64,000 bases of DNA from assembly GCA_019057795.1 (NCBI GenBank), contig JAHLWS010000053.1, forward strand, positions 1-64,000. The letters run 5' to 3'. Within the stretch, counting starts at the first letter, position 1; each line of letters starts with the position of its first letter. Below, one piece after another: positions 18,465 through 34,051 of the stretch. Source of the stretch: Promethearchaeota archaeon (lineage in GTDB: Archaea > Asgardarchaeota > Lokiarchaeia > Sigyniarchaeales > SOKP01). The notes beneath the pieces are model-generated. The model saw nothing but the letters and a program-made list of their open reading frames with translations. It made no database searches and was not told where the DNA came from. The position numbers were made by a program, and so were the translations under genes.

Positions 18465-18639
18465 TATTCAACGATTATTTTAATTTATTTACTTAATAAA
18501 GTCATATTTTCAATTTAAAAATATTGCAATCCTTTAACTCTTTTTGGATATTGGAAAATAAATTTTTGATTTAAGTCGTTAAGTTGGAAAGCTTTAACTA
18601 ACGACTGTAATAATATTTTAAAAAAGAAAGGAAAATATG

Positions 18640-18662
18640 TGATGCTTTTACAAAAAACATCA
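18640..18662 (-). terminator. Hairpin plus U-rich tract after micropeptide 1
   Basis: UGAUGUUUUU-UGU-AAAAGCAUCA followed by CAUAUUUUCCUUUCUUUUUU on the minus strand. Confidence 0.6.
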
Positions 18663-18664
18663 TT

Positions 18665-18694
18665 TTATGGCGTTGGGTCTGTTTGACCAGCCAT
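18665..18694 (-). CDS. 9-aa micropeptide MAGQTDPTP
   Basis: ATG GCT GGT CAA ACA GAC CCA ACG CCA TAA; SD-like AGTGAG 5 nt upstream; homologous to 18872-18901 and 32749-32778. Confidence 0.65.
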   Translation of the reverse strand: MAGQTDPTP

Positions 18695-18846
18695 TTTTTC
18701 TCACTTTGTTTGTTATGTGAATTGTATTTAACTAATTTTTTTTTTTAATTTTTGACCGAGATAAAACGACATATAATAAAACATATATTTATTTTACCAA
18801 AATTATATTTTTGAACTACTAATTTTAAAAAAGAAAAGAAAATATG

Positions 18847-18869
18847 TGACGCTTTTATAAAAAGCATCA
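18847..18869 (-). terminator. Hairpin plus U-rich tract after micropeptide 2
   Basis: UGAUGCUUUU-UAU-AAAAGCGUCA followed by CAUAUUUUCUUUUCUUUUUU. Confidence 0.6.
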
Positions 18870-18871
18870 TT

Positions 18872-18901
18872 TTATGGTACTGCGTCTGCTTCCCCAGGCA
18901 T
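18872..18901 (-). CDS. 9-aa micropeptide MPGEADAVP
   Basis: ATG CCT GGG GAA GCA GAC GCA GTA CCA TAA; AGTGAGAAAGG immediately upstream. Confidence 0.7.
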   Translation of the reverse strand: MPGEADAVP

Positions 18902-19054
18902 CCTTTCTCACTTTGTTTGTTACGTGAATTGTTTTTAACTAATTCTTTTTTTTAAATTTGAAATCGAATTGAAATGTTTATGTTAAGTTCTCTCAAAACA
19001 ATTTATTAATTGATTTATTTAAACTCCTAAAAAAAGAGAGAGAACTTTTATTTT

Positions 19055-20272
19055 TTAAAGTGCTAAATCGGAGGGGAGTATTGGCTTGATAAGCAAGTCT
19101 CGAAAATTCTTAATCGAAGGAAATTCCCCATATTTGTTTATTATGAGTCTGCTTCCAATATTATACGAGAAAGTAGGAGTTGACTGTACTGAATTTAAAA
19201 ATATTTTTATTCGATTTTTTATATTTTCTTGGCTATAGATTTCAAAACTGGTTGCGTATCGAATTAATTTTTCTTCGCTCCACCCGTCAATAAGAGCACG
19301 ATAAGCGAAATTATACCAGAAAAGCGATAGTTTTACTTTTACTTTGCTTTGCGCTATTAATGCTTCAATAGAGGATTCTTTTGACGAGTCTAGACAAAAT
19401 TCTCGTAAGCTAATTTCTGCTTGGTCTCGATAAGAAAAAAGCATATTAACTGCGATAGTCGCTATTCCTTCGCTAATTATTAACTTGGGCGAGTTTAGTA
19501 GCAGGATTGAGTGTTCAAATTGATTTAACTCGCGATATAGCCTTTGTTCTTTGGCAATAAATTCTGTATGATGGCCAGGGTATCCTTCGTGAGTGGCAGC
19601 AGACAAAAATAAGGTCCAATACATGTTATAATTCGGGTTAACTTCTATTCGGGAGCGAAAATTACCCAGGTACCAATTGTAATAAGTCCATTTAATTTTA
19701 TTATTGCTGTTATTTTTTACTAGCTCTATATTAATGTGCTCACTTTCAGGTAAGAGATCGACAAACACTTCTTTAGTTCGCTCTCTCGTGATGTTGAGAG
19801 CTTTCTTAAATATTCCAAAAACCTTACCTTCGGGAATCGTTCGCCGCACTCTTAAATCCTTCAAGAGTTCTTCTAGACTCCCAGAACTTCTGTATGCTTC
19901 GCGATACTCCTCTTTTAAGCTTTCCAATTCAGATTCATTTATGGGTCGCAAGGCTACATCATATAACCTTAAAAATTGTTCCTTAAAAGGTATTTCGACT
20001 CCGTTTAATATCTCGATCGAAGTCCTCATCGCCGTTAACATTTTTTCTAAATATCGTTCGCGTTTTTTATCGTAACCTTGTTTAAACAAATCTTTTTGTA
20101 GAGCTTTACAATCGATTAATAGTTTGTTTGGTGGGGTTAAAACCTCATTGTCAACGATTTTACGTAATTTTTTAGGACCAATATAAAAATCTACATATCC
20201 CTTATTGTGTTTGTCTATGCGAAGTGGTAAACGCAGAAATTTTTTTCCATATTCAGATAATTTCATAGGCAC
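19055..20272 (-). CDS. DUF885-like zinc metallopeptidase-fold protein, paralog 1
   Basis: HEGYPGHH plus downstream ISEGIA (gluzincin-like ligand pattern); homologous along its length to 32855-34051; no signal peptide. Confidence 0.8.
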   Translation of the reverse strand: MPMKLSEYGKKFLRLPLRIDKHNKGYVDFYIGPKKLRKIVDNEVLTPPNKLLIDCKALQKDLFKQGYDKKRERYLEKMLTAMRTSIEILNGVEIPFKEQFLRLYDVALRPINESELESLKEEYREAYRSSGSLEELLKDLRVRRTIPEGKVFGIFKKALNITRERTKEVFVDLLPESEHINIELVKNNSNNKIKWTYYNWYLGNFRSRIEVNPNYNMYWTLFLSAATHEGYPGHHTEFIAKEQRLYRELNQFEHSILLLNSPKLIISEGIATIAVNMLFSYRDQAEISLREFCLDSSKESSIEALIAQSKVKVKLSLFWYNFAYRALIDGWSEEKLIRYATSFEIYSQENIKNRIKIFLNSVQSTPTFSYNIGSRLIINKYGEFPSIKNFRDLLIKPILPSDLAL

Positions 20273-20494
20273 ACCCGGTAATTTCGTCTTTGAGTGCGTA
20301 AATTTAATATTTTATTTCAATAATCTAACACTAAAGATATTCGTCTACTAATATTAATATAAATAAGATATAAATAATTTTATTTAAGAATTGAGTTAAT
20401 AATTATAATTGATTATATTAAATTATTGGTTTATTCTATGGCCCGATCGCGTCTATGGCGAGTTACAATTTGAAGCGTAATAAAAATAATTAAT

Positions 20495-22855
20495 TTACTC
20501 CTCAACTATATTTAAATTCAGCTTTAATTTAGAGGCATAAAACATTATCTTATTAAAAATATCTTGATCTATCCCTAGTTTTACGCCTAAATTCAATATA
20601 TTCGAAAACTGGTTACCGTAATAGGTTTTAAACAACTCGGATACATTATATATGGCGTTTTGTTCAGAAGATTTAAGTATTTCAGATTTTTCAAATTCTT
20701 CTTTTCTTATTTTTAAGATTTCGCTAGAATATTTGACAAATTGTGTATGCCGCATTTTTTTTAGATCGAAAATCTTTGTACTTCCAAGCTCTCTTACTAC
20801 GAGTACATTTTTTACGATTGAATGAATTTTATTGAGCAGTTTCGTTCTAAATTCATCCAAATTACTTACTTCGCTTAATAGCTCCTGAATTATTTCAGGA
20901 AATGGTAAATCTAATCCAGCTAATTCAGTCGTTAAATTTAATAATATTAAAATTTGATCCGTTTTCTCTTCAGAATTAGATTTTAATTCTTGATAAATAA
21001 ATTCTCTTTCTTTATTTATAAAATCGAATAAAAATTTTCTAAAAGCTTTTACAAATTGACGATAGTTTGGGACAAATAGTCTATTTGGGTTATTTGATAT
21101 AATTTCATAAGCTTTAAAAGGACTAATCTTTTTATCGAGAACTGATTTGATAAGAGATAAAGGGTAATATCCTTCAATAAATACCATCCCCTTCGAAATA
21201 CTATTAATTGCGTCTTTAAACGAACATTTTGCGATTATATTGATTCTTTTAACGATATTTCCTTCAATTTTTACCGGAGTTTTTTGACAATAAACTAAAT
21301 CGAACGGTTTCAAGTCATGAAAAAGAGAGTTGTTTTGATCTGGGATAACAATTTGAGCACCATATGCATTTACTAGACTACCTTGTCTTGGCTTACTAGC
21401 TAAATCCCATTCTATTATCATAAGGTCGTTAATATTAGAATAATCTTGATCAATGTCGTAATTGTATTCTATAGGTTTACTTATTAACGAAAAGACATCA
21501 ATAGAATTAATTTCATAACTATTTTCTTCTCCCCAAAATTGTTTTTTATAATAAAAAATATCTGGGAAGTTGTTTAAATCGTCTAAAAACAATTCTTTAA
21601 TTATTAAATAGTTAACCCCAATTTCTGAAGATTTAATGATAGATTCGTTTATTCCATAAAAACCTATGTGTCTTATAACGTAATTGTAAGCGGGGTTTCT
21701 GAGATTCTCTTTATCGTGATTAACGATATAGGTGTTTCTCTTTTTTCTAAAATCAACTTTAGATTTTTTGATTTTATATTTATCCTTAAGTAGATTGAGA
21801 AAAGCAAATTTCTTTAAATATACTTTCTTTTCTAATTCTTTTATTTCGCTTTTATAAGCCTTATATTCGTCATAGTACGCATCTTTTTGAATCTGAAAAA
21901 CTTCAAAATGCCTCTTCATTAGCTTTAGTTTATCTATTACGCAGAAATTCTCTATTTCGCTTTTAAAATACTCAACAATTTCGCTTTTAAATGATTCAAA
22001 AGCCTTCAAAGGTATTAAATCTTTGAATAGCGGATTAAGATTAACAAGAGTTTCGTAATTTTTTTTTATAAAAAAAGTTGAAAAGTACATTTCATTAAAA
22101 TCGTTTGAATTAGCCATTTTTTCCAATTTCTTAAGTATAGACGAAACAAAAGATTCGTTTTGAAATTTATATACATCTAATAATCTATCAAATGATTCTA
22201 TAATTCTAAGTATTTCATAAAAAGTGTATTTTGAAACCGAATTTAGAAATAGTTTAATCCCTTTTTCTATGTAGTGATTGTATTTGAGAAGATAAGGACC
22301 TAATTCATTATCGTAGGCAGATTGCAGAAATTCAAAAAATTCAATATACAAATTATTTTCAATTGCTGTTTTCAAATACCTTTCTATAATCGATTCGCAC
22401 TCGTGTTGATTTATAATCGCTTTATTTAAATAATTTAGTCCCTCAACACAATTTTCACATTCAAAACAAGCATTAGCTAATTTCAAATAGTTTTTACTCT
22501 TCTTTTTGGAACCAAGGTCTTCAGAAGTTAAATAAAAATCGTCAATATTGTTGATAATTTTTAAAGAAATCGACGGTTTTATTATCGTTAAAAGTCTTAT
22601 TAGATGGATACATATCTTATCATCTCTTTCGCTGTGTATTAAAAAAGTAGGACAATCGTGGAATATTTCATTTTTTTTCTCGTTAATAACTAGGTGGAAT
22701 TCCCGGTCATTATCTAAGATGATTGATCTTATCTTTATTGGATCTTCTTTCAGTGAAATTATATTAATTTTATTTTTCTGGAACTCAACTGATTTCGTAT
22801 AAATTTCAATTCCATATTTCTCAATTATTAATTCTGATAATTTACTTTTTGTCAT
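20495..22855 (-). CDS. SWIM-type zinc-finger protein with helical repeats
   Basis: N-terminal HDCPTF...KICIH; third gene of the AAA-VWA operon. Confidence 0.65.
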   Translation of the reverse strand: MTKSKLSELIIEKYGIEIYTKSVEFQKNKINIISLKEDPIKIRSIILDNDREFHLVINEKKNEIFHDCPTFLIHSERDDKICIHLIRLLTIIKPSISLKIINNIDDFYLTSEDLGSKKKSKNYLKLANACFECENCVEGLNYLNKAIINQHECESIIERYLKTAIENNLYIEFFEFLQSAYDNELGPYLLKYNHYIEKGIKLFLNSVSKYTFYEILRIIESFDRLLDVYKFQNESFVSSILKKLEKMANSNDFNEMYFSTFFIKKNYETLVNLNPLFKDLIPLKAFESFKSEIVEYFKSEIENFCVIDKLKLMKRHFEVFQIQKDAYYDEYKAYKSEIKELEKKVYLKKFAFLNLLKDKYKIKKSKVDFRKKRNTYIVNHDKENLRNPAYNYVIRHIGFYGINESIIKSSEIGVNYLIIKELFLDDLNNFPDIFYYKKQFWGEENSYEINSIDVFSLISKPIEYNYDIDQDYSNINDLMIIEWDLASKPRQGSLVNAYGAQIVIPDQNNSLFHDLKPFDLVYCQKTPVKIEGNIVKRINIIAKCSFKDAINSISKGMVFIEGYYPLSLIKSVLDKKISPFKAYEIISNNPNRLFVPNYRQFVKAFRKFLFDFINKEREFIYQELKSNSEEKTDQILILLNLTTELAGLDLPFPEIIQELLSEVSNLDEFRTKLLNKIHSIVKNVLVVRELGSTKIFDLKKMRHTQFVKYSSEILKIRKEEFEKSEILKSSEQNAIYNVSELFKTYYGNQFSNILNLGVKLGIDQDIFNKIMFYASKLKLNLNIVEE

Positions 22856-22859
22856 TATT

Positions 22860-25373
22860 CTAAAATCTCGATTTTATAATATCAGAAATTAATTTTGGAA
22901 AGTCGTTCCAATCTTTTATAGTTAATAATTGCCCTCCTGCGATTTTTACCATTTTTTTTGCTTCTTTTAAGTTGAAGGAGGATTCTGGGCAGACTAAGAT
23001 AAAATCAATCCCTAAAGAGCGGAAAATTCTTAATGTTTCAATAGATTGCTGAAGGTCGTATATTTCAGCATCAGTAAATAATACGTTCAGCTTTTCACGG
23101 GAGCTTGATTTTTCTTTAAATTGTTTTTTTGCCCATTCTAAGGCACTTTGAAGCCTCGTACCGCCCTTAGCTGAAACAGAGAGCAACTCATCAGCTAATT
23201 TTTCTAAATCTACTTTTTTAGATAATTCCTTTAAAACATGCGTATCTGACTCGAAAAATGCAATAGCAATCTCATCTTTTCTCATCCCATATACTAACAT
23301 CGTCACACATATTGCCATATATGCTAGTTTTTCTCCTGTCATCGAACCACTAATATCAAGTTCAAAGCATAACGAGCGTAATCCTTTTGCGGTCTCATAG
23401 ACAAAAAAATCGTCGTAATTAATGTGGTCTAATTTTTTACCTTTTTCTAAAAGGTTAAAGATTGTTTCCTCTAGGTCTATATTTTCGAAGTCGTCTCCTA
23501 TTGTGTAGGGTCTTACTATGTTAATAGGTGTAGGCCCGGTCGTTGCACTGCCTAAACGAGCCCTTGAGTAATATATTCCTAACTCAATTAGCATTTTTTT
23601 TGCTAATTCCTTAACCTTTAATTTAACTTGCTCTGGTAGATTGTTTCTATGAATAAACCATTGTTTAAGGAGATTCTCACCGGTACCCGCAGATAAACAA
23701 GCAATTAATTTATCTTGCGCTTCTTTGCCCCCTATTTGCTGAGCACCTTTTAAAGCCTCACTCAAATTAAAATGACCAATTGCGCCTAAAGCATCCCTAT
23801 TATCGGAAGCTAACGCACTGCTTAAAAGCTCTCTAATTCTATCTTTATTTAGTTGGTCTTTAATCTGATTCATTAAATTGTTAATTCTCTGAAAATCTGC
23901 TATCTTCTTTTCAATCGTTTTTTTAAGTAATTGATAGTTAGGTTCAATTAATTCATATATTTCTTCTTCGGGCATTTTAAGTTTTTTTCCAATTCTTTTA
24001 ATATCTTCTGCTTCAGGATTTAATCCGATCTTTCTTAAGAATTCTGTTGCGTTTCTTAATTGGTCAGGCGTTTCACATGCTTCTAGTGTTTGAGAAACTA
24101 ATTCGGGTAATTTTTGAGATATTTTTTGTCCACAGTGCATGTTTGGGCAGCTATTCATTAATTGTTGCATTTGATGAGAAAGCGATTTAAATGCTTCAAA
24201 CTTAATATTTTGACTATTTGCCTCATCGATCGCATTTTTCATAGCTTGGTTAAATAGCGAATTCCAAGATTTATTAGCAAATGCATTTTTTGTCAATATA
24301 TCTAACGATAAATTCAATTGTTTCTTCTGTTTTTGCGAATTTTGCATTTGTTCATTTAATTTATTAAGCAATTCTTCTCTTAAATTAGTACCAAAATATT
24401 GATCTAGCGAGTCTGCTAGGTTAAAATTATGCTCAAATGAAGATTGGTTTAGCGAATTATTCAAAACTTTGTCTTGATCAAACTTAGGAGTTTCGCCTAA
24501 AGTTTTTGCGGCATTAAATAGTTGATCTAAATTATTTAATTGGTTCTGAAGTTGATTTTTAATATTTTGGATTTGATCTTTTATGCTTTGATTGTCCGAA
24601 GTCTCATTAATAAATTTTATAGACTTTAAAAGATCATCTAATTTGTTTGAATTAATTAGTTTTGATAAATCTTCTGAAATATCCTGATTATTGAGAGCTT
24701 TACTTGCGAGCTTTTCCCATTCCCTTAAGGAATTTTGCTGGATTAAGTCGTTTAAACCTAAATTCGAGCCAGCTTTTAAATCGTCAGGACTTAACGAATT
24801 TATTTTTTGTTCTAGCCTTTTTTGGGCTTCTTGAATTAGTTTTTCTAAGGAAGATATTTCTTCTTTATACAATTCCGAATCGTCGTTAAAAAAATTTAAT
24901 GCAGATTTATATGGCTCTTTCTCCCTATTCGAATTTAATTCTTTAAGAAATTCCTCTAATTTTTGAATCTCATCTGTATCTATTGATTTCGTCGCCTCAA
25001 TTTCGTCTATAATCTCTTGAAGTTGATCTAATTCAGACTTCATCTCGGATTCTACAAGGTCTTCAAGAAATTTATCAACTGTATCTTCGCTCTGAAAAAA
25101 CGAGTCAATAATATCTTTTTTGTAATTTGGAAAGAGAATTTTAAAAGCAATATCTTTTGCTAATTCCTGATTATCCGGAAACGAAGTTACGGTACTTATT
25201 TCTATGTAATCGTTAGGTGACACAAAGCCCTTTCGATAATACCTTGATAAAATTAACTTTGGAATTGATAAAACTTGACGTGATGACGGAATTTGGATAA
25301 TGTCGGCATGAGACCTCATTTTTCTAATGAAATCTACAGCAAATTCGCAAGGATTTTCAGGAAAAACTGCCAT
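22860..25373 (-). CDS. VWA-domain protein (MoxR partner)
   Basis: MIDAS DISGSM...GGT...FTD near the C-terminus; IDLEETI pre-VWA segment. Confidence 0.9.
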   Translation of the reverse strand: MAVFPENPCEFAVDFIRKMRSHADIIQIPSSRQVLSIPKLILSRYYRKGFVSPNDYIEISTVTSFPDNQELAKDIAFKILFPNYKKDIIDSFFQSEDTVDKFLEDLVESEMKSELDQLQEIIDEIEATKSIDTDEIQKLEEFLKELNSNREKEPYKSALNFFNDDSELYKEEISSLEKLIQEAQKRLEQKINSLSPDDLKAGSNLGLNDLIQQNSLREWEKLASKALNNQDISEDLSKLINSNKLDDLLKSIKFINETSDNQSIKDQIQNIKNQLQNQLNNLDQLFNAAKTLGETPKFDQDKVLNNSLNQSSFEHNFNLADSLDQYFGTNLREELLNKLNEQMQNSQKQKKQLNLSLDILTKNAFANKSWNSLFNQAMKNAIDEANSQNIKFEAFKSLSHQMQQLMNSCPNMHCGQKISQKLPELVSQTLEACETPDQLRNATEFLRKIGLNPEAEDIKRIGKKLKMPEEEIYELIEPNYQLLKKTIEKKIADFQRINNLMNQIKDQLNKDRIRELLSSALASDNRDALGAIGHFNLSEALKGAQQIGGKEAQDKLIACLSAGTGENLLKQWFIHRNNLPEQVKLKVKELAKKMLIELGIYYSRARLGSATTGPTPINIVRPYTIGDDFENIDLEETIFNLLEKGKKLDHINYDDFFVYETAKGLRSLCFELDISGSMTGEKLAYMAICVTMLVYGMRKDEIAIAFFESDTHVLKELSKKVDLEKLADELLSVSAKGGTRLQSALEWAKKQFKEKSSSREKLNVLFTDAEIYDLQQSIETLRIFRSLGIDFILVCPESSFNLKEAKKMVKIAGGQLLTIKDWNDFPKLISDIIKSRF

Positions 25374-25391
25374 AAAATAACTTTTTACCCC

Positions 25392-26333
25392 CTACGCACC
25401 TAAAGTTTTATGAATAATACTTTCAATAATATTTTCAACTTTTGTACCCGGCTTTGGTTTCATACTTCCTAGTAGAACATTACGAGTGATCTCTGAAAGA
25501 TATTCGTTAGTTGATGTTTTTTCTTTTATTTTTCCTTCTTTTTCTAAAGATCGTCTTCGAGCTAATAGTTTTGCCATCGCAATTCCGGCTCGAATTGACG
25601 CTGGTACTTCAATATCTATTTTATTCTTTCTTGTTTCGTTTATTATCGAATAAATTAATTCTAATTCAGACTCTTCGATAATAAAATGTTCCGGCAAATT
25701 TATTCTTATAATCTCGAGCTCAGTCGCTTTATCGGGATACGTCAGTTTAATCCAGATCTTAATTCTATCCTTTAAAGCCTCAGATAATCGATGGGTGCCC
25801 GAAAGCTCTTCCGGGTTCATAGCAGAAATAAAGAAGAAATCCTTGCTAGCTTTTATTCGACCCAAGTGCGGAATGTTTATCGATTCTTCCTCTAAAGGTT
25901 CCAATAAAGTATTTTGCGAGTATTCAGTAGCTCGATTTATTTCATTTGCTAAAAAAGTCCCACCTTCTAACATTGCGCTCAAAAGCGGACCGGGGTTAAA
26001 AGCTTCTAACACAAATCCCTTTTTTAAAGTAATAGCAGGATCGAAACTACCTATAAAATGTGAAGGTTTTATGCTTTCGTCCATGGTGAGCCAGAAAAAG
26101 CTCTTATTTCTTTTTTCTTTAGCTCTTAAACTAGCAAAATATCTACATAAAATTGTTTTACCCACTCCAGGTGGCCCAACAAGAGCTGGAAATAGTCCTG
26201 TTGCCTCGGCATCTCTAAGTAATTCCATCGCTTTACCATATTGTCCGGATAGAACAATATCAATTGGTTCTTGAGATATATCTTTTATAAGTTGTTGCTG
26301 AAATAACTCCTCGAATCTTTCTTTATTAATCAT
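25392..26333 (-). CDS. MoxR-family AAA+ ATPase
   Basis: GPPGVGKT, FNPGPL, NEINRA, AMNP, LSEALKDR. Confidence 0.92.
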   Translation of the reverse strand: MINKERFEELFQQQLIKDISQEPIDIVLSGQYGKAMELLRDAEATGLFPALVGPPGVGKTILCRYFASLRAKEKRNKSFFWLTMDESIKPSHFIGSFDPAITLKKGFVLEAFNPGPLLSAMLEGGTFLANEINRATEYSQNTLLEPLEEESINIPHLGRIKASKDFFFISAMNPEELSGTHRLSEALKDRIKIWIKLTYPDKATELEIIRINLPEHFIIEESELELIYSIINETRKNKIDIEVPASIRAGIAMAKLLARRRSLEKEGKIKEKTSTNEYLSEITRNVLLGSMKPKPGTKVENIIESIIHKTLGA

Positions 26334-26499
26334 TTTATTTTCTCTGATTAAAGACGACTATTCAAAGTCTTTCTTTTTGTAAATAATAAGTATTTGGTAA
26401 TTTTTAACTTTGAATATAATAAGATAAAAGGATCATAAATAAGTAATAAAATTAAAATAGAAGTCTATTTGTTTTTAAAAAAGAAAGGTAATTATATGA

Positions 26500-26530
26500 T
26501 AACCTTAGAAAGAGCACCAATTTAAGGTTA
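26500..26530. promoter_or_regulatory. Spaced inverted repeat, candidate operator
   Basis: TAACCTTA-N15-TAAGGTTA between the divergent MoxR operon and the glycyl radical enzyme gene. Confidence 0.35.
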
Positions 26531-26644
26531 AAGGTTATTAAAAATTTTATAATAACTCGTAACAACTTTTATTTAGTTTTAAAATTATAATAAAAATTAA
26601 AGTAATGATATTTTAATTAAAAATTAATCAAAAATTACAATTTT

Positions 26645-29035
26645 TTGGGAATAACAATGCAAATAGAACAAATTTCTCCTTCGGGTAATGAAGATCGAAT
26701 TTCACGATTGAAAAATAGAGTGGTTTTACAGCCACACGAACTCTGCATAGAAAGAGCTAAGCTTTTCACGGAATCTTATAAAAGTACAAAGGGCGAGGCT
26801 CCAAATATAAGATTTGCGAAAGCTATGCACCATCTTTTTACAAATATGACAATAAAAATATGGGACGATGAATTTATTGTTGGAAATCGATGTACTAAAT
26901 TTGTTGGAACGTCCTTATATCCTGAAGTACGCGTTGATACAATTGAGCAAGATATTAACCTTTATAACAATCGAGAAACTCAACGGCTATTACTTTCAGA
27001 TGACGATAAACAAATCATAATCGAAGAAATTATACCTTATTGGAAAAACGAAGAAGAGACTACTAAATCCAGATTTGACTCTTATTTAAGTCCCGAATTA
27101 ACCGATCTCATGTTAAATCTACTCTATATCGTGGACACAAACATAACTAACGGGACGGGGCATTTCTTCCCAGGACATCAAAACGTCTTAAAAGCGGGAT
27201 TTGACGGCTTAATTCAAAAAGCAAGAGAGAAGATGAAAGAATTTTCAAAAGATCAAAAGAAAATGAACTTTTTGGAGTCAGTTATTATTGTTTTAGATGG
27301 TTCTAAAGAGTTTATTCAAAGATTCTCAATATTGGCAACGGAATTAGCAGAAAAAGAAGGCAATAGTAATAGAAAAAAAGAACTTTATGAAATTGCTGAA
27401 ATTTGTTCTAATATCTCTGGTAACCCACCATCCTCATTTAAAGAAGCCTTTCAATTATTATATTTCACTCACGTTATTGCTGGCCTCGAAGATGGAGGCT
27501 TTGCTATTAGTATAGGACGCATTGATCAAGTTCTCTATCCTTTTTATTTTGAGGATAAAAAAAAAGGGACTATAACTGATGAAGAAGTACAATTCTTAAT
27601 TGAATGTTTTTACTTGAAGCTTACAACTCTATGGAATTATGTCCTCCATAAAGGAATTATAGCTGCAGAAGGCCCGCCACTTACGGCAAATATGACGATA
27701 GGAGGCGTTGATGAGGATGGAAACGACGCTACTAATCAATTGTCGTATCTATTCTTAGATTCTTATAAAAAGCTAAAAACAGTTCAACCTACTTTTTCCG
27801 TCCGCATTCATAATAAATCTCCAGACGATTTACTTGTAAAAACAGGAGAAGCAATTAAATCTGGAGCGAGTATTGCGTTGTTCAACGATGTTGTTATGAT
27901 TCCAGGTCTTAACAACCTTGGTTATACTCTCGAAGATGCACGTGGATACGCGCCAATAGGGTGTGTAGAACCAACACATACTTACAAGTCATTTGGATGT
28001 ACAAACGCTACTCAATTAAATATTGTGAAGTGTTTAGAGCTAACATTGAACAATGGGACAGATATGTTTACAAGAAAGCCATATGGCATTGAAAACACAA
28101 AAAAGCTCTCTTCATACCAAGATTTATTGGACGAATTTTCGAACCAACTTAGCTTTTTTACTAAAAATTTGGTAGAAACAATGTCTTTCCTTGAGAAAGC
28201 TATTGCTGAGCTCAATCCGCAACCCTTTTTATCCGCAACTATAGACGATTGCATTGAACGGGGGTGTGATATCACAAGTGGAGGTGCTAAATATGATTTT
28301 ACTACGACTCAACTGATTGGTTTATCTACGGTTGCCGATTCCCTTGCTGTAATTAAAAAAATGGTCTACGAGGAAAAATTATTCTCTTTAGAAGAGTTAA
28401 CCAAGATATTATCAAAGAATTACCGAGGTAGTTATAATGGGAAAAAGGGAGAAGAAATAAGACAAATCTTTATTAATAAAGTTCCTAAGTTTGGAAACGA
28501 TAACGATTATGTCGATATTATAGCTCGTGAGGTAGCAGATTTGTTCTGTAATGAAATTCTTAAATATAAGAATTATAGAGGCGGAAATTATCATCCAGGA
28601 ATTTATTCTACAGCTTTTCACTTAGCATTTGGAGTTTTTACAGCAGCCTCCGCTGATGGAAGAAAAGCAAGAGAACCATTATCAAATGGAGTTGGTCCAA
28701 CCAACGGAAGGGATAAAAACGGCCCAACTGCGATACTTAATTCGATAATGAAGCTGGATAATGAGTTAATAACGAATGGAAACTCAGTAATATTAGCTTT
28801 TCATCCAAACACACTAAAGATGGAATTGTTCCTTCCACTCATTAGAACCTATTTTGAAGAAAATGGAGGTTATCACATACAATTTAATGTGGTTGGAAAA
28901 GAAACTCTATGTGATGCTCAAATAAATCCAAAAGAATATCAAGGCTTAGTTGTTCGGATCGCTGGGTATTCCGTATTGTTTACGGAATTATCTAAATCCG
29001 CACAAGACGAGATTATTGGTCGAACGGAGTTTTAA
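26645..29035 (+). CDS. Glycyl radical enzyme (PFL2/dehydratase/lyase type)
   Basis: Cys loop IGCVEP and glycyl loop LVVRIAGYS; single Cys, so not canonical PFL; start may be ATG at 26657. Confidence 0.93.
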   Translation: MGITMQIEQISPSGNEDRISRLKNRVVLQPHELCIERAKLFTESYKSTKGEAPNIRFAKAMHHLFTNMTIKIWDDEFIVGNRCTKFVGTSLYPEVRVDTIEQDINLYNNRETQRLLLSDDDKQIIIEEIIPYWKNEEETTKSRFDSYLSPELTDLMLNLLYIVDTNITNGTGHFFPGHQNVLKAGFDGLIQKAREKMKEFSKDQKKMNFLESVIIVLDGSKEFIQRFSILATELAEKEGNSNRKKELYEIAEICSNISGNPPSSFKEAFQLLYFTHVIAGLEDGGFAISIGRIDQVLYPFYFEDKKKGTITDEEVQFLIECFYLKLTTLWNYVLHKGIIAAEGPPLTANMTIGGVDEDGNDATNQLSYLFLDSYKKLKTVQPTFSVRIHNKSPDDLLVKTGEAIKSGASIALFNDVVMIPGLNNLGYTLEDARGYAPIGCVEPTHTYKSFGCTNATQLNIVKCLELTLNNGTDMFTRKPYGIENTKKLSSYQDLLDEFSNQLSFFTKNLVETMSFLEKAIAELNPQPFLSATIDDCIERGCDITSGGAKYDFTTTQLIGLSTVADSLAVIKKMVYEEKLFSLEELTKILSKNYRGSYNGKKGEEIRQIFINKVPKFGNDNDYVDIIAREVADLFCNEILKYKNYRGGNYHPGIYSTAFHLAFGVFTAASADGRKAREPLSNGVGPTNGRDKNGPTAILNSIMKLDNELITNGNSVILAFHPNTLKMELFLPLIRTYFEENGGYHIQFNVVGKETLCDAQINPKEYQGLVVRIAGYSVLFTELSKSAQDEIIGRTEF

Positions 29036-29136
29036 TTCCATTCAAATGTAATTCATTTTATTTTTTGAAGAAAAATCAAAAAAATTTTTAGTTATTATTA
29101 TTTTTTTATTGTATCTAAATATTTAAAAATAAAAAT

Positions 29137-29208
29137 GGGCCTGTAGATCAGTCGCAGATCGCTTGCTTCGCATGTAAGAGGGCACGGGTTCAATTCCCGT
29201 CAGGTCCA
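29137..29208 (+). tRNA. tRNA-Ala(CGC), intronless, CCA not encoded
   Basis: Acceptor GGGCCTG/CAGGTCC with G3:U70; anticodon arm CTTGC-TTCGCAT-GTAAG; T-arm ACGGG-TTCAATT-CCCGT. Confidence 0.93.
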
Positions 29209-29244
29209 CTATTATATTAAATAACTATCTAAAAAGGTATGTAA

Positions 29245-31845
29245 ATGGCGCAAGAGACTGAGTATCCAAAAAGATTTAAATTCAACGATATTCAAAAAAA
29301 GTGGATACAATATTGGCGAGAAGAAAAAATTTATGATTTCGACATCAATCAAGAAGGCACTCTTTTTTCTATTGACACTCCTCCTCCTTTCGTGAGTGGT
29401 TCGTTACATATGGGACACATTTTGAATCATTCGTGGATCGATTTTGTAGCGCGATATCATAAAATGAAGGGCGAAAATGTTTATTTTCCTCAAGGTTTTG
29501 ATTGTCATGGCCTTCCAGTAGAATTAGCGGTAGCAAAAAATTATGGCGTTTCTAAGGATGATCGAGAGGAATTCTTAAAAAAATGCGTTGAATGGGTAGA
29601 TAACAATATAAAAAATATGACGAAACAGTTGGATGAATTAGGATATTCCACAGATTGGAGATATACTTATCGCACTATGGACGAAGAATATAAACGAAAA
29701 GTCCAAATTTCACTTTTAAATTTTTACGAAAAGGGATTACTTTACAGAGAGAAATTCCCGACGCATTTCTGCGTTAACTGTGAGACTTCAGTAGCGAAAG
29801 CAGAAGTGGGTTATAAGGAAGAAACAGGAAAGTTATGGTATATAAAATTATCCATAGTGGGAAGAGAAAACGAGTATGTTACCATAGCTACAACACGACC
29901 AGAGTATATGGAGGCTTGTGTTGCCGTTCTTATTAATCCAAATGATGATAGATACTATGATCTTTCTGCAGCAGAAGTAAAACTTCCTATTGCTAACCGA
30001 GATGTTCGTGTTTATATGAACGAAAATGTTGATATGAATTTTGGAACAGGAGTGGTTTATGTATGTACTTACGGAGATGAAATGGACATTAAATGGAAAT
30101 TAGAATATGACCTTAACGAAATTCAAATATTTACTGAAAACGGTCGTATGAACGAAAATTCTAAATACAAGGGACTTTCAATTATGGAAGCTCGAAAACA
30201 AATAGTAAAGGATCTTGAAGAGCTAAAATTAATAGAAAAAATTGATGACTATGAACACAGCATAATAATCCATTCAGAACGCTCGTCTTGTCGAACTCCA
30301 ATAGAATATCTACCAGTTTATCAGTGGTTTATTAATGTTAAAGACTTTACTCAAGAAATTATAGAATCTGCTGATTTGATGAACTGGTACCCGAAGAAAC
30401 ATAAATTACGATTATTGGATTGGGCAAACGGCTTAGATTGGAATTGGGTAATTTCCCGGCAACGCGTCTTCGGAACACCGATTCCTTTTTGGTATTGTGG
30501 TGAATGCAACGAGATTTTTCCTCCAAAAAAAGAAGATTTACCATTAGATCCAATTAAAATCCCTCCACCATTTGAAAAATGCCCTAAGTGCGGTAGCACT
30601 GATATCATTGGCGAAAAAGACGTCTGCGATTGCTGGATTGATTCTAGCATATCTCCCCTTGCCATGTCCAAATGGTTAGACGATGATGCTTTCTTCAAAA
30701 AAGCCTATTTAGAAGCTAAAGTTCATCGACCTCAGGGTTACGAAATAATACGGACATGGTTGTTTTATACGCTATTTCGGTGCAAGATATTAACAGGAAA
30801 AGCCCCTTTTTACGAAGCAATGATTAATGGTATGGTTTCAGGACCAGATGGAAGACATATGTCAAAAAGCCTTGGAAATTCTATTTCACCGGATGAAGTT
30901 ATGCCCAAATTTGGAGCCGACGCAATTAGACAATGGGCAGCGATGGGATCACTAGGAGACGATTATCCTTTTGAATTTACTTGGATAAACATTCATACAA
31001 AACAGCCAATTTCAAACGAAAACATCGAAAAAGAAAGAAAAAAACTCCCAGAAGACAAATTTAACAAAAAATATCGCAGAAATTTCGAGCAACTAATTGG
31101 AGCATCGCGATTTATCACTAAGATGTGGAACGCATACAGATTTTTGTTCCTTAATTTAAGAAACATCGAAGTTCCAAATTTACAGATCAAAGATAGCGAA
31201 TTATCCGAAATTGAAAGTTATTATTTTTTTGAATTTAATAAAGCTTTAAAAGAAGCTACAAAACATTTCGACGGATATAATTGGCACGAAGCTTTTATGG
31301 TATTACGAGTTTTTTTCTGGAACGAACTGTGCGATAATTACATAGAAGCAATAAAGCATAAATTCTATTCTGAAGATAAAAATATCGCACAAAACGCGTT
31401 AAAAAATGCACTGAGTTTATTTTACAAAATTTTAACCACATTCGCCTTTACAATGCCTTTTATTACAGAAGAAATTTACTCAATTCTCTATCAAAATTAT
31501 AGAGAGTTGAAATCGATCCATTTAGAAGCATGGCCGCGACCGTACGATAAAGTTTCTGAGGAGTTCGCGAATAGCGGAAAATTAGCAATTGAAATTATCA
31601 AAATTCTTAGAAATTGCAAATCTAAGCTCAAAATACCGTTAAATCAAGAAGTAGAAAGAATTATTATTTCCTCTAATAAGAATACGATAAACGAGATTGA
31701 AAATGTAAAAGCTGACATTATTAACACAATTAGAATAAAAAACTTTGAAATTATTGAAAGCAAAAAAGAAAAAGATATTAAAGAAAGTCCTGAACTTAAA
31801 GAAGATTACGAGGATTTAAATTTATCCTTGTTCTTTTTTAAATAA
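29245..31845 (+). CDS. valS: Valyl-tRNA synthetase (archaeal type)
   Basis: IDTPPP, LHMGH, GFDCHGLP, ATTRPE, WVISRQR, HMSKS. Confidence 0.95.
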   Translation: MAQETEYPKRFKFNDIQKKWIQYWREEKIYDFDINQEGTLFSIDTPPPFVSGSLHMGHILNHSWIDFVARYHKMKGENVYFPQGFDCHGLPVELAVAKNYGVSKDDREEFLKKCVEWVDNNIKNMTKQLDELGYSTDWRYTYRTMDEEYKRKVQISLLNFYEKGLLYREKFPTHFCVNCETSVAKAEVGYKEETGKLWYIKLSIVGRENEYVTIATTRPEYMEACVAVLINPNDDRYYDLSAAEVKLPIANRDVRVYMNENVDMNFGTGVVYVCTYGDEMDIKWKLEYDLNEIQIFTENGRMNENSKYKGLSIMEARKQIVKDLEELKLIEKIDDYEHSIIIHSERSSCRTPIEYLPVYQWFINVKDFTQEIIESADLMNWYPKKHKLRLLDWANGLDWNWVISRQRVFGTPIPFWYCGECNEIFPPKKEDLPLDPIKIPPPFEKCPKCGSTDIIGEKDVCDCWIDSSISPLAMSKWLDDDAFFKKAYLEAKVHRPQGYEIIRTWLFYTLFRCKILTGKAPFYEAMINGMVSGPDGRHMSKSLGNSISPDEVMPKFGADAIRQWAAMGSLGDDYPFEFTWINIHTKQPISNENIEKERKKLPEDKFNKKYRRNFEQLIGASRFITKMWNAYRFLFLNLRNIEVPNLQIKDSELSEIESYYFFEFNKALKEATKHFDGYNWHEAFMVLRVFFWNELCDNYIEAIKHKFYSEDKNIAQNALKNALSLFYKILTTFAFTMPFITEEIYSILYQNYRELKSIHLEAWPRPYDKVSEEFANSGKLAIEIIKILRNCKSKLKIPLNQEVERIIISSNKNTINEIENVKADIINTIRIKNFEIIESKKEKDIKESPELKEDYEDLNLSLFFFK

Positions 31846-31871
31846 TTCTTTTACCTACAATCTTTTTTAAG

Positions 31872-32594
31872 ATGACGAATAAAAATTTAATTGTTTTCGT
31901 CCCAGCTTATAACGAAGAAAAAAGCATTTTTAAATTGATTAAAGAAATACCCTCGTTCCCAAACGCTAACCAGAAAGTTATTGTTATTAACGATGGCAGT
32001 ACAGATAACACTTCAGCTACCGCTAAAAAAGCAGGCGCAATAGTAATATCGAATAAAAAGAACTTAGGTTTGGGTTATTCCTTTAAAATTGGATTAGTAG
32101 AAGCGTTAAAAGAAGGAGCAGATGTTATAGTGGTGTTAGACGGCGACGGTCAATATAACCCTAAACACATAAGTAAGTTGATTTGTCCAATATTACGAGA
32201 TGAAGCCGATTTAGTGCAAGGAAACCGATTTTTGGCTGGCGAGAGATACGAAAGTTCGTCAATAAAGAAATTAGGAAACAAGCTTATTTCGATCTTTTTG
32301 TCCACGATATTATTAAGACTGACAGAAGTTTACGATGTACAATCCTCTTTTAGGGCGTTTAATAGATCTTTAGCTACTGTTCTTGTGGACGAAATTGTAG
32401 GTAAGTACAATTACGCTCAAGAAATGTTTATAATAACGAGCCTACATGGGTACAAAATAAAACAAATTCCGGTCCAATGTTCGAAAAGAAGTTATGGTCA
32501 ATCAAGGTTAATCAGGAATCCTTTCATCCATTTAATTAAAATTCTCTGGGTTAGCTTAAGAACTTATTTGTTATTAAAATATTGGAAAAACTAA
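31872..32594 (+). CDS. GT2 glycosyltransferase (DPM1-like)
   Basis: PAYNEE, NDGSTD, LDGDGQY, GNRF. Confidence 0.93.
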   Translation: MTNKNLIVFVPAYNEEKSIFKLIKEIPSFPNANQKVIVINDGSTDNTSATAKKAGAIVISNKKNLGLGYSFKIGLVEALKEGADVIVVLDGDGQYNPKHISKLICPILRDEADLVQGNRFLAGERYESSSIKKLGNKLISIFLSTILLRLTEVYDVQSSFRAFNRSLATVLVDEIVGKYNYAQEMFIITSLHGYKIKQIPVQCSKRSYGQSRLIRNPFIHLIKILWVSLRTYLLLKYWKN

Positions 32595-32748
32595 ATCATA
32601 AGCTATGAAAATTTAATTCTATTCTAGAGATATTTTCTTCTTTCAATAAAAAATAGTGATCCTTTTATAAATCCATTATAAATTTATCATGCTAAGTGAA
32701 GTTATTATTATAAAAATTTCTAAAAATATTATTAAGGTGAAAAAAAAT

Positions 32749-32778
32749 ATGCCACATGCTGGAGACGCAGTTCCATAA
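32749..32778 (+). CDS. 9-aa micropeptide MPHAGDAVP
   Basis: AAGGTGA SD, then ATG CCA CAT GCT GGA GAC GCA GTT CCA TAA, then a long T-tract; shares DAVP-stop with 18872-18901. Confidence 0.72.
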   Translation: MPHAGDAVP

Positions 32779-32854
32779 GTTTATTTTAGCAAGAAAATAT
32801 TTTTTCCTTTTTTTTTTTTTGGTTTAATATCTCAATTTTCGATTTTTCGAAGAT

Positions 32855-34051
32855 TTATAAGTCTGAAGGCAATGTTTGTTCAGTAAGTAATCTACGAAAA
32901 TGCTTCGGAGATGGTCGATTGCCAAATTTTTCAGTGATAAGCCGTTCTCCTTGGTAAACTAATACATAGTGGGCCCACAATTCATCCGATATAAATTTTA
33001 ATATTGCTCTAATTCCTTTATCAGGAATCACTTTAAAACTCTTAGCATATCTTATTAGCTCATTCTCCGTCCATTTATGAACATACTTATGGTAAGCTAA
33101 ATTACTTTGAAATTTCGCAAATCCGCATCTAATTTCGTCCTGTCTAGTTAAAGTCTCTAAATTATCTTCAATTTTAGGATTGGGGTGAAGCTCTGCTAAT
33201 AAGATTTTCGCACTTTCAGTAGGATCAAATAAGACTTTTTCAGCTGTTACTCCAATTCCTTCTGAAATGACTATCTCTGGACTATAAATTAATAGAATAG
33301 AGCTTTCAAAATAACCTTTAGAGCGATACAAAAGCTTCTCTCGTGCTGTCCGTTCCGTGTGGTGTCCAGGATATCCCTCATGGCAAGCACTAGATAATAA
33401 ATGAGTCCAGTAATGAAATGTACTAATATTGATCTCTATTCTGGAGGCATAATTTCCTCTATACCAACAATACTTTGGCCAGCTTTGATCTTCTACTTCT
33501 AAAATGTCAATCTCTTCGTTATCTGGAAGCAGATTAGGAAAAACTTCTTGCGTTCGTTTTTGTGCAATACGAATTGCTTTCATATACAGCTCTTTTAAAC
33601 GACCTGATGGAATAGTCCTTTGTTTAGCATACCTTGCTATCCGTTCAGATAAAGTTCCTTTTCCCTTATACAATTTATCTGCTTTTGATGATAAATTATA
33701 AAAAAAGTTATCGTTATAAAATATTGGTTTAAAATCAAATAATTTCTCAACTTGCTCTAAATATGGAATTTTCTCGCCATTTAATGTTCTTAAAGTGGTT
33801 TCAATAGCAGTAAGAGTTTTATCAAGGAAATTAAGGCGCTTCTTTTCGAATCCTTGCTTTGGTAATTGAGCAATGAGAGCTCTACAATCTTTTAATAATG
33901 TTGTAGGGGAAATTTTTTCCTCTAAGTCCACTGTGTATTTAAGTTCTGGGGGCCCATAATAATGCTCAACATAACCATTTATATGTTTGTTGATCCTCAA
34001 TCCTAAACGCAGATATATTTTGGCAAAATCATTTAACTCCATATTGAACAA
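32855..34051 (-). CDS. DUF885-like zinc metallopeptidase-fold protein, paralog 2
   Basis: HEGYPGHH...ISEGIG; homologous to 19055-20272. Confidence 0.8.
   Translation of the reverse strand: MFNMELNDFAKIYLRLGLRINKHINGYVEHYYGPPELKYTVDLEEKISPTTLLKDCRALIAQLPKQGFEKKRLNFLDKTLTAIETTLRTLNGEKIPYLEQVEKLFDFKPIFYNDNFFYNLSSKADKLYKGKGTLSERIARYAKQRTIPSGRLKELYMKAIRIAQKRTQEVFPNLLPDNEEIDILEVEDQSWPKYCWYRGNYASRIEINISTFHYWTHLLSSACHEGYPGHHTERTAREKLLYRSKGYFESSILLIYSPEIVISEGIGVTAEKVLFDPTESAKILLAELHPNPKIEDNLETLTRQDEIRCGFAKFQSNLAYHKYVHKWTENELIRYAKSFKVIPDKGIRAILKFISDELWAHYVLVYQGERLITEKFGNRPSPKHFRRLLTEQTLPSDL

Follow-up and report, generated by a model that had tools for sequence, protein, structure and literature searches.

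Nine-codon genes beside zinc peptidase-like genes

The stretch of DNA analyzed here (the window) comprises the first 64,000 nt of contig JAHLWS010000053.1, assembly GCA_019057795.1, from a Promethearchaeota archaeon (a Loki-type Asgard) whose genome spans 4.95 Mb in 87 contigs at 31% GC. It holds three candidate mini-genes, encoding the nonapeptides MPGEADAVP, MAGQTDPTP, and MPHAGDAVP, and two genes for zinc peptidase-like enzymes, P0001 and P0002 (Table 1). An earlier reading made without database searches (the sequence-only reading) had proposed these open reading frames (ORFs), and inspection of the DNA bore out all three in position and strand. As that reading held, each has GAC at codon 6, ends in CCA-TAA, carries a Shine-Dalgarno (SD)-like site 5-8 nt ahead of its ATG (GTGAG or AGGTGA) and has a T-run behind it; in addition, we found a hairpin beginning 0-4 nt past each TAA. 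Its distances were also correct: the tandem ORFs start 156 nt (MPGEADAVP) and 363 nt (MAGQTDPTP) past the end of the P0001 gene, i.e., within 400 bp, and the MPHAGDAVP gene, which is convergent with the P0002 gene, ends 76 nt from its 3' end. The two enzymes are indeed HEGYPGHH paralogs, with 42% identity. Their longest ORFs begin at GTG (P0001) and TTG (P0002), the homologs begin at a Met 3-4 codons further in (MKLSEY.., MELNDF..), and the true starts are probably the ATG at 20266 (codon 3) for P0001 and the ATG at 34042 (codon 4) for P0002.

Table 1. Features of the window and related mini-genes elsewhere. Positions are those of the window unless a contig (C) or a genome (G) and contig are named; L numbers denote loci.
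Feature	Position	Strand	Remarks
P0001 gene	19055-20272	-	405 aa; HEGYPGHH and invariant Glu268; DUF885-like gluzincin
P0002 gene	32855-34051	-	398 aa; paralog of P0001; HEGYPGHH
Mini-gene MPGEADAVP	18872-18901	-	9 codons + TAA; A-type cassette, copy proximal to P0001
Mini-gene MAGQTDPTP	18665-18694	-	9 codons + TAA; A-type cassette, distal tandem copy
Mini-gene MPHAGDAVP	32749-32778	+	9 codons + TAA; B-type cassette, convergent with P0002 gene
SD-like site GTGAG	18907-18911	-	5 nt before ATG of MPGEADAVP
SD-like site, twin	18700-18704	-	For MAGQTDPTP; counterpart of GTGAG at 18907-18911
SD-like site AGGTGA	32735-32740	+	8 nt before ATG of MPHAGDAVP
10-bp hairpin (predicted by folding)	18847-18869	-	Starts 2 nt after TAA of MPGEADAVP
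T-rich tract	18826-18842	-	Archaeal terminator-like; after MPGEADAVP hairpin
10-bp hairpin	18640-18662	-	After MAGQTDPTP; inverted repeat arms; fold z-score -2.67
T-rich tract	18619-18635	-	After MAGQTDPTP hairpin
Weak hairpin, then T-run (T6-CC-T13)	32779-32821	+	After MPHAGDAVP; fold no better than shuffles
Tandem duplication of whole cassette	18615-18959	-	138-nt direct repeats, 207-nt period, 87% identity
MoxR-type AAA+ ATPase	25392-26333	-	Upstream of P0001
VWA protein	22860-25373	-	837 aa; upstream of P0001
786-aa protein	20495-22855	-	No Pfam match; upstream of P0001
Mini-gene MPATCDTTP, two copies	C1:646-675 and C21:1371-1400	-	C-type cassette; source genome; loci L036, L050
Mini-genes of fourth flank type	G004:C44:877-906 and G048:C15:489-518		Loci L215, L220

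The same unit recurs in related genomes. A-type cassettes orthologous to that of MPGEADAVP (in G020, G051, G011, and G056) encode MPGQKDAIP, MPGEMDAIP, and MPGQTDATP, and an identical MPGEADAVP ORF is also present on contig C70 of the source genome. MAGQTDPTP alone, among the family members seen, has Ala at position 2. The B-type peptide MPHAGDAVP is found in the same arrangement in G051, while in G056 it is MPHSPNTVP that converges with the P0002 ortholog. The stem of the hairpin behind MPGEADAVP is kept in 10 cassettes, with compensatory changes at two pairs, and orthologs of the MPHAGDAVP type in G002, G056, and G020 have a clear GTTTCTC..GAGAAAC stem. A T7 run lies at +19 from the enzyme stop in the window and a TATA-like box at -55 from the ATG.

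Frequency of the pattern and selection on the peptide

The mini-genes of the window are more than chance occurrences. The pattern ATG-N12-GAY-N6-CCN-stop occurs 10 times in the 4.95-Mb genome and six times together with an SD-like site, a hairpin, and a T-run; these six are the three window copies, one copy beside a third enzyme paralog on C70, and the two MPATCDTTP copies (C1 and C21). A relaxed pattern, M-P-x(5-9)-P, gave 47 matches genome-wide, six of them with an SD-like site and a T-run, and since all six are family members, the filtered search returned no false positives. Across 42 genomes of the genus, MPG-x5-P-TAA was matched ~95 times compared with twice for a reversed control pattern. 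In 120 further genomes of the class it did not rise above background, except for one module in G117, outside the genus, where MPGSVGTIP follows an enzyme 55% identical to P0001. The Asp-containing pattern, searched across the order, was likewise at background level outside the genus.

Motif statistics were drawn from 57 distinct 9-codon cassettes. Position 9 is Pro throughout and position 2 is Pro in 55; position 3 is Gly in 49, His in five, and Ala in three. The M-x4-D-x2-P motif by which the sequence-only reading had defined the family did not hold up, as position 6 is Asp in just 26 of the 57 (Gly in 20, Asn in four, and a few others) and the conserved residues are Pro2, Gly3, and Pro9. Since Asp6 is not conserved, the Asp-centered chemistry also suggested there (e.g., an isopeptide) is unlikely to be general. 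Positions 4, 5, 7, and 8 are variable yet limited to small or polar residues: Lys, Leu, Phe, Tyr, Trp, Arg, and Met together make up 8 of the 228 residues at these positions, in a genome of 31% GC. The stop is TAA in 56 of the 57 cassettes and the next nucleotide is A in 40.

At the nucleotide level, variation falls where synonymous change would place it. Entropies at codon positions 1, 2, and 3 are 0.25, 0.13, and 0.90 bits for codon 2, and 0.43, 0.72, and 1.62 bits for codon 3, and all four CCN codons are in use at codon 9. The MPG and P-TAA segments are the best-conserved parts of the cassette (mean pairwise identity of 0.85-0.92), the flanks lie at 0.55-0.60, and the inner codons 4, 5, 7, and 8 are the least conserved (0.39-0.55). 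A covariance model built from the cassette flanks and hairpin, in which the terminal Pro was not a search criterion, recovered 17 further cassettes, each with an 8-10-codon ORF carrying the expected Pro (e.g., MPGTANTTP, MPGEHGIAP, MPNLAITP, and MAPGCGNIIP). Pro is the last residue in 15 of them and stands at position 9 in the other two, which have lost the stop.

An SD-like site and a T-run accompany 75 M-P-[G/H/A] ORFs. Of these, 67 end in Pro after exactly nine codons, six retain Pro9 without the stop, and in one a TGA at codon 6 interrupts the frame. Run-on cassettes add 1-5 residues (MPGESDSIPK, MPGQPGTFPK, MPGQDGFVPY, MPGCADAIPNA, MPANCDTIPK, and MPANCDTIPKLLSA; loci G002:C84 (L020), G008 (L019), G005 (L231), G011:C134 (L201), and G048/G002 (L118, L119)) and are consistent with point changes in TAA. 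The interrupted one (G004:C174:1053-1082, L229) reads MPGQT-TGA-TNP within intact flanks, with TGA at position 6, usually GGN or GAY, and is probably a dead copy.

The same peptide pattern is carried by at least three unrelated flank types. A fourth type, with the SD-like site GGAGGTGA, encodes MPGQCGSVP and MPGQCGTNP, and no enzyme gene lies within 1.5 kb of it. Across all three flank classes the median distance from stop to hairpin is 2 nt; stems are kept across cassettes, some with compensatory changes, and every family member scanned has an SD-like site. Signals between the enzyme gene and the cassette (TATA-like box, T-run) are present in only about half of the modules; in about half, no T-run stands between the enzyme stop and the cassette, and co-transcription is possible there. 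Third-position variation at Pro2, Gly3, and Pro9, together with the fixed length and the restricted composition, indicates selection on the translated peptide, as the sequence-only reading had argued from fewer copies. The conservation of the cassette is an unusually clean sequence signature of this kind, from which we infer that the mini-genes are translated.

Association with the enzyme across genomes

When the Asp requirement was relaxed (ATG-CCN-(6 codons)-CCN-stop, with an SD-like site and a T-run), almost all of the enzyme loci that we fetched showed one or two mini-genes just downstream. We considered distinct, uninterrupted enzyme genes with at least 58% identity to P0001 and downstream DNA available. 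All 26 such genes are followed by one or two mini-genes, 131-551 nt downstream on the same strand; the initial count was 25 of 26, and the last gene proved to have MPGQKNIVP behind an AAGGGG site that lay outside the SD filter. In a set of 16 genomes, 60 of the 83 MPG-x5-P-TAA ORFs have a same-strand enzyme match 1-1000 nt upstream of them and, conversely, 40 of 52 near-full-length enzyme matches have such an ORF downstream. The 12 without one include nine that are P0002-type or otherwise distant (38-46% identity to P0001), one at a contig end, one followed by the variant MFHSGEVVP, and one that is unexplained. Genomes of the genus with a P0001-type enzyme have these ORFs in 13 of 13 cases. 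The modules occur in at least five syntenic contexts and no other neighbor gene is common to them. The P0002-type paralog is accompanied by a mini-gene in G000, G051, and G056.

Two other origins of the cassette were considered and rejected. It is not a miniature inverted-repeat transposable element or other mobile repeat, as the A-type cassette always follows the enzyme gene and keeps its reading frame, and it is not a hidden enzyme exon, as the C-terminus of the enzyme matches the consensus end of its family.

Upstream of P0001 on the same strand, three genes (20495-26333) keep their order in G020, G051, G011, and G056. The VWA protein retains 82% identity in the latter two genomes, compared with only 64% for the 786-aa protein. 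In an Rfam 15 scan of the window the cassettes had no match at gathering score, and a tRNA gene (29137-29208, plus strand) was the sole match.

The enzyme family

Residues H228, E229, H234, H235, and E268 of P0001 are invariant in 48 diverse homologs. The Pfam model for DUF885 (PF05960) scored 16.7 and 13.3 bits, below its gathering threshold of 32.4; a weak match to it was present in 20 of the 48 family members (best E 4e-6), NCBIfam has no model for the enzyme, and searches of PDB sequences with the single protein and with a profile gave nothing useful. Structure was more informative. The AlphaFold model of P0001 (pLDDT 94) has as its best Foldseek match the DUF885 structure 3O0Y (E 1.9e-5, TM 0.55), then 3IUK and 3U24, with M32 carboxypeptidases, ACE/ACE2, and MATCAP among later matches, in agreement with the gluzincin-like zinc site of the sequence-only reading. 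The enzyme represents a separate, unnamed family with a modeled gluzincin fold of the DUF885/M32/ACE kind. DUF885, M32, ACE, and MATCAP gluzincins act on the C-termini of short peptides or protein tails.

Relatives are numerous, with 1273 representative homolog clusters of P0001 at E values up to 1e-3, and the homolog loci that we fetched are mostly bacterial (Chloroflexota, Actinomycetota, Deinococcus, Pseudoalteromonas, and others). A search of viral contigs found no relative of the enzyme, and there is, therefore, no sign of a virus-borne module.

Copy number and rate of evolution

The module is an accessory, fast-evolving, and co-duplicating two-gene unit. Enzyme copies range from 0 to 10 per genome within the genus, many complete genomes have none, and mini-genes number up to 18 in a single genome (G005). 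In-frame stops and fragments are found among the enzyme copies. At C70:89459-91385 (L015), the third enzyme paralog of the source genome, 72% identical to P0001 and interrupted by an in-frame TAG, is followed in order by MPGEEGATP, a 50-residue remnant of an enzyme C-terminus, and MPGEADAVP, an order that suggests a tandem duplication of the entire module, since decayed.

Between G000 and G051, the ratio of nonsynonymous to synonymous substitutions (dN/dS) of P0001 is 0.49 at a dS of 0.135, and that of P0002 is 0.36, compared with 0.06-0.15 for the flanking VWA, 786-aa, CoaBC, and c5 genes, although an elevated dN/dS alone cannot separate positive selection from relaxed constraint. All genes of the syntenic block have similar dS values (0.085-0.17), and P0001 is 86% identical where the flanking proteins are 95-98% identical. 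Peptides change as well, differing at 29% of positions where enzymes differ by 10-20%. Enzyme and peptide distances were weakly correlated in a Mantel test (r 0.20; 109 of 5000 permutations at least as high), a result that shows modules to stay intact and is no proof of partner co-evolution, because peptide distance saturates early.

Cassettes beside transporter genes

C-type cassettes encode the same kind of peptide behind the SD-like site TTGAGGTAAGG, with a long GC-rich hairpin and a T-run. They do not lie beside the enzyme; a major facilitator superfamily (MFS) gene is adjacent at 19 of 30 sites, in three contexts, of which 11 are downstream on the same strand (130-200 nt past the cassette) and eight convergent. 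A gene for an M29 aminopeptidase lies upstream at some sites. The two MPATCDTTP copies of the source genome have TTTATATA ~54 nt upstream, a GAGGT SD-like site, a long GC-rich hairpin, and a T10 run; ~240 nt further downstream there is a same-strand MFS gene, and no enzyme paralog lies in the vicinity.

Eight-codon variants of the C-type (MPNLAITP, MPSYAITP, MPNSGIIP, MPNSGICP, and MPTGAIVP) occur in G014, G015, G042, G044, and G024 (loci L099-L103, L106, L115, and L117). For most, the convergent neighbor is a different MFS gene, with ~27% identity to the other MFS. In these genomes the enzyme was not found in G014 and G015, and G024 has a fragment alone. At L071 (G048), L076 (G002), and L081 (G051), genes for arginyl-tRNA synthetase, an agmatinase-like protein of the arginase family, and deoxyhypusine synthase form a cluster no more than 5 kb from a C-type cassette.

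Interpretation

The adjacency of mini-gene and enzyme gene is independent of orientation, the two duplicate together, the ends and length of the peptide are invariant, and the fold of the enzyme is of a kind that gauges short peptides from their C-terminal end. A partnership at the level of the gene products is the simplest reading of these observations. In our favored interpretation, then, the cassette would be a translated mini-gene whose nonapeptide works with the product of the adjacent gene, as an active-site ligand of the enzyme; we find about as much reason to accept this as to doubt it. Each cassette (TATA-like box, SD-like site, nine codons, TAA, hairpin, and T-run) would yield a nonapeptide, or an octapeptide if Met is removed, with Pro at or next to both ends. 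The partner of the A- and B-type peptides would be a cytosolic zinc peptidase-like enzyme with the DUF885/M32/ACE fold. The peptide may sit in its catalytic channel, with the C-terminal Pro as anchor and the fixed length as measure, and would be a cognate, poorly cleavable ligand: as a competitive inhibitor or a slow substrate, it would tune its own paralog's activity. This direction is suggested by analogy with Pro-terminated inhibitors of ACE and with protease-inhibitor gene pairs. Specificity of each pair would come from the variable inner residues, and the whole would behave as an accessory, quickly diversifying, and co-duplicating two-gene module. A narrower proposal is that the Pro-capped peptide of 8-9 residues is a specific active-site ligand of the neighboring gluzincin, either an inhibitor or an antitoxin-like latency factor, in a conflict- or addiction-like family with an MFS-coupled sister set; we put this forward tentatively and consider it rather unlikely in this full form.

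Several observations weigh against the favored interpretation. The P0002-type enzymes of G019 and G010 have no mini-gene, and at 80 distant homolog loci (bacteria, Hodarchaeota, and other Promethearchaeota) none was found at the corresponding place. The enzyme, therefore, does not need the peptide, and this lineage alone has added the pairing to an old enzyme. C-type cassettes are also present where no enzyme match was found (G048, G014, and G015) and, since the peptide family stands beside MFS genes without the enzyme, the enzyme is not its only partner. Relaxed constraint could also account for the elevated dN/dS of the enzyme, and a hairpin at the stop, an MP start, and a Pro-stop end would also fit a function that lies in the act of translation. 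The dedicated peptide-enzyme pair of the sequence-only reading is strongly supported for P0001-type genes, with a mini-gene after 26 of 26, many duplications, and at least five contexts, but it is not exclusive, given the MFS-linked members and the P0002 type, which is paired in some genomes only. Likewise, the enrichment that it expected near enzyme homologs is found within the genus (60 of 83 ORFs) but not at the distant loci (0 of 80). Its statement that it knew of no description of the pairing agrees with our literature searches on Asgard small proteins and on DUF885, which gave no account of such a pairing.

The act of translating the mini-ORF could itself be the function, with the peptide a by-product and Pro at codon 2 and before the stop slowing the ribosome in a manner dependent on aIF5A or charged tRNA-Pro; we judge this unlikely. 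Met-Pro starts and Pro-stop ends are steps helped by aIF5A in other systems, these are the most conserved features of the cassette, and some C-type cassettes have genes for deoxyhypusine synthase and agmatinase nearby. On this view, a ribosome paused at the stop would cover the 5' arm of the hairpin and control termination, read-through, or RNA stability, like mccA or short arrest and leader peptides. The hairpin position is as expected for this in three flank classes, an MFS gene follows on the same strand at the 11 C-type sites, and ribosome binding at mccA induces termination and stabilizes a short RNA (PMC4231749). However, the gene after A- and B-type cassettes often is convergent or differs between genomes, and since it is often on the opposite strand, the cassette is not a cis-leader; MPHAGDAVP, for example, faces the 3' end of P0002, where there is nothing to attenuate. 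The prevalence of TAA followed by A, if this is a strong termination context, argues against programmed pausing, and occupancy by a ribosome alone does not explain the conservation of Gly3 or the exclusion of bulky and basic residues. Nor did folding reveal an alternative anti-terminator structure: just the terminator hairpin and a weak stem of the SD-like site with the AUG, which has no covariation, were predicted.

Alternatively, the peptides might be autonomous and exported as a signal, competition factor, or metal ligand, moved by the MFS protein and processed or degraded by the DUF885-like enzymes for turnover or immunity. We think this slightly less probable again; it would parallel the logic of microcin C (peptide, MFS pump, and immunity peptidase) or of pherotype systems. 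MFS genes adjacent in three contexts and both orientations, and the M29 aminopeptidase gene upstream at some sites, are what this explanation would predict. The several different peptides per genome, up to 18 in G005, with inner residues that diversify fast, fit it too, and Pro at both ends would shield a free peptide from exopeptidases. Against this, no transporter is common to the ~40 enzyme-linked modules, the peptide has no signal or leader sequence, and no ThiF-like, ATP-grasp, or radical SAM family is among the annotated conserved neighbors; an unmodified 8-9-mer has no obvious warhead, and the MFS adjacency may largely be inherited synteny (c8, cassette, MFS gene) and not repeated association.

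That the cassettes are non-coding, i.e., small RNAs or repeated terminator or 3'-untranslated elements of the enzyme gene with an incidental 9-codon frame, is highly improbable: conserved flanks and hairpin, the tandem repeat, and possible co-transcription with the enzyme would suit it, but ATG, length, and stop are kept in 67 of 75 cassettes, Pro and Gly codons vary at the wobble position alone, three or four unrelated flank types share one peptide pattern, Rfam has no match, and a variable "seed" region would not keep a reading frame and an amino acid composition.

If the narrower proposal of an inhibitor or latency factor is true, the peptide would be the smallest genetically encoded enzyme regulator known. 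If the peptides are made, few known protein-coding gene families would be as small as theirs, and this one belongs to the archaeal lineage closest to eukaryotes. A widespread and uncharacterized peptidase-like family, with 1273 representative clusters and no curated model, would thereby gain a concrete candidate ligand, making its biochemistry directly testable with synthetic peptides. Standard gene calling misses this whole class of gene, and similar peptide-enzyme or peptide-transporter modules may hide elsewhere. The accessory, fast-evolving, and co-duplicating behavior suggests a specificity or conflict system of a kind undescribed in archaea.

Relation to known systems

The nearest relatives of the enzyme are DUF885 proteins, placed in the clan Peptidase_MA (PMC12572635), and M32 carboxypeptidases. 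Both share with it the HExxPGH motif and a downstream Glu, and the DUF885 structures 3O0Y, 3IUK, and 3U24 are the closest. It differs from DUF885 in length (~400 aa here, ~550 there), in its sub-threshold score, and in having no NCBIfam model.

Of the systems that resemble the cassette, the attenuators of cat-86, cmlA, and erm have leader peptides of ~9 codons. Like the cassettes here, they combine an ORF of this length with a hairpin directly behind it, and an MFS gene stands downstream of some C-type copies. However, the enzyme-linked copies have no regulated downstream gene, the hairpin is followed by a T-run, and no ribosome-binding site is masked; the regulated same-strand gene expected next to an attenuator is seen at just 11 of 30 C-type sites, and at A- and B-type ones the next gene often is convergent or varies from genome to genome. 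With Rap-Phr and other RRNPP systems the module has in common multi-copy, diversifying cassettes and a ~400-aa all-alpha protein gene followed by a small peptide gene with its own signals. Phr precursors, however, are 38-57 aa long with a secretion signal, and their partner is a tetratricopeptide repeat (TPR) receptor without a catalytic site, whereas the present peptides lack a leader and their partner has retained a peptidase fold with an intact zinc site.

For the proposed ligand role, two comparisons are apt. Teprotide, a bradykinin-potentiating nonapeptide ending in Pro, acts on ACE. The structural superfamily is the same, and here too a Pro-ended oligopeptide of ~9 residues would resist cleavage, but venom peptides hit the enzyme of another organism; the analogy is one of mechanism alone and no homology is claimed. 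In staphopain-staphostatin and serralysin-Inh, the protease gene is directly followed by a same-strand gene for its inhibitor, and the two are inherited as a pair. The mini-gene is likewise adjacent, on the same strand, and co-inherited (26 of 26; at least five contexts). Known inhibitors of such pairs, however, are folded proteins of ~100 aa or more, whereas the putative inhibitor here has 8-9 residues and 1-3 copies per enzyme.

The closest known architecture is that of mccA/MccB (microcin C), with its 7-codon precursor, dedicated enzyme, MFS pump, and immunity peptidases. The differences are clear: the last residue is Pro here and Asn there, the enzyme is a peptidase-like gluzincin and not a ThiF-like adenylyltransferase (MccB), the mini-gene follows the enzyme gene where mccA precedes it, and the host is an archaeon. 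We found no evidence of modification here and no ThiF-like family in Pfam scans of the neighbors, whose sole common member was the DUF885-like gene. The likenesses are as specific. The mccA gene has a conserved short length, a variable interior, an invariant last residue, and an immediate terminator, the hairpin of which yields a short, abundant, and ribosome-stabilized RNA (PMC4231749, PMC6495379), and the present mini-genes share its short and fixed ORF length, variable interior, invariant last residue, and terminator hairpin at once after the stop, and adjoin the gene of a protein that handles the peptide there and is the candidate partner here.

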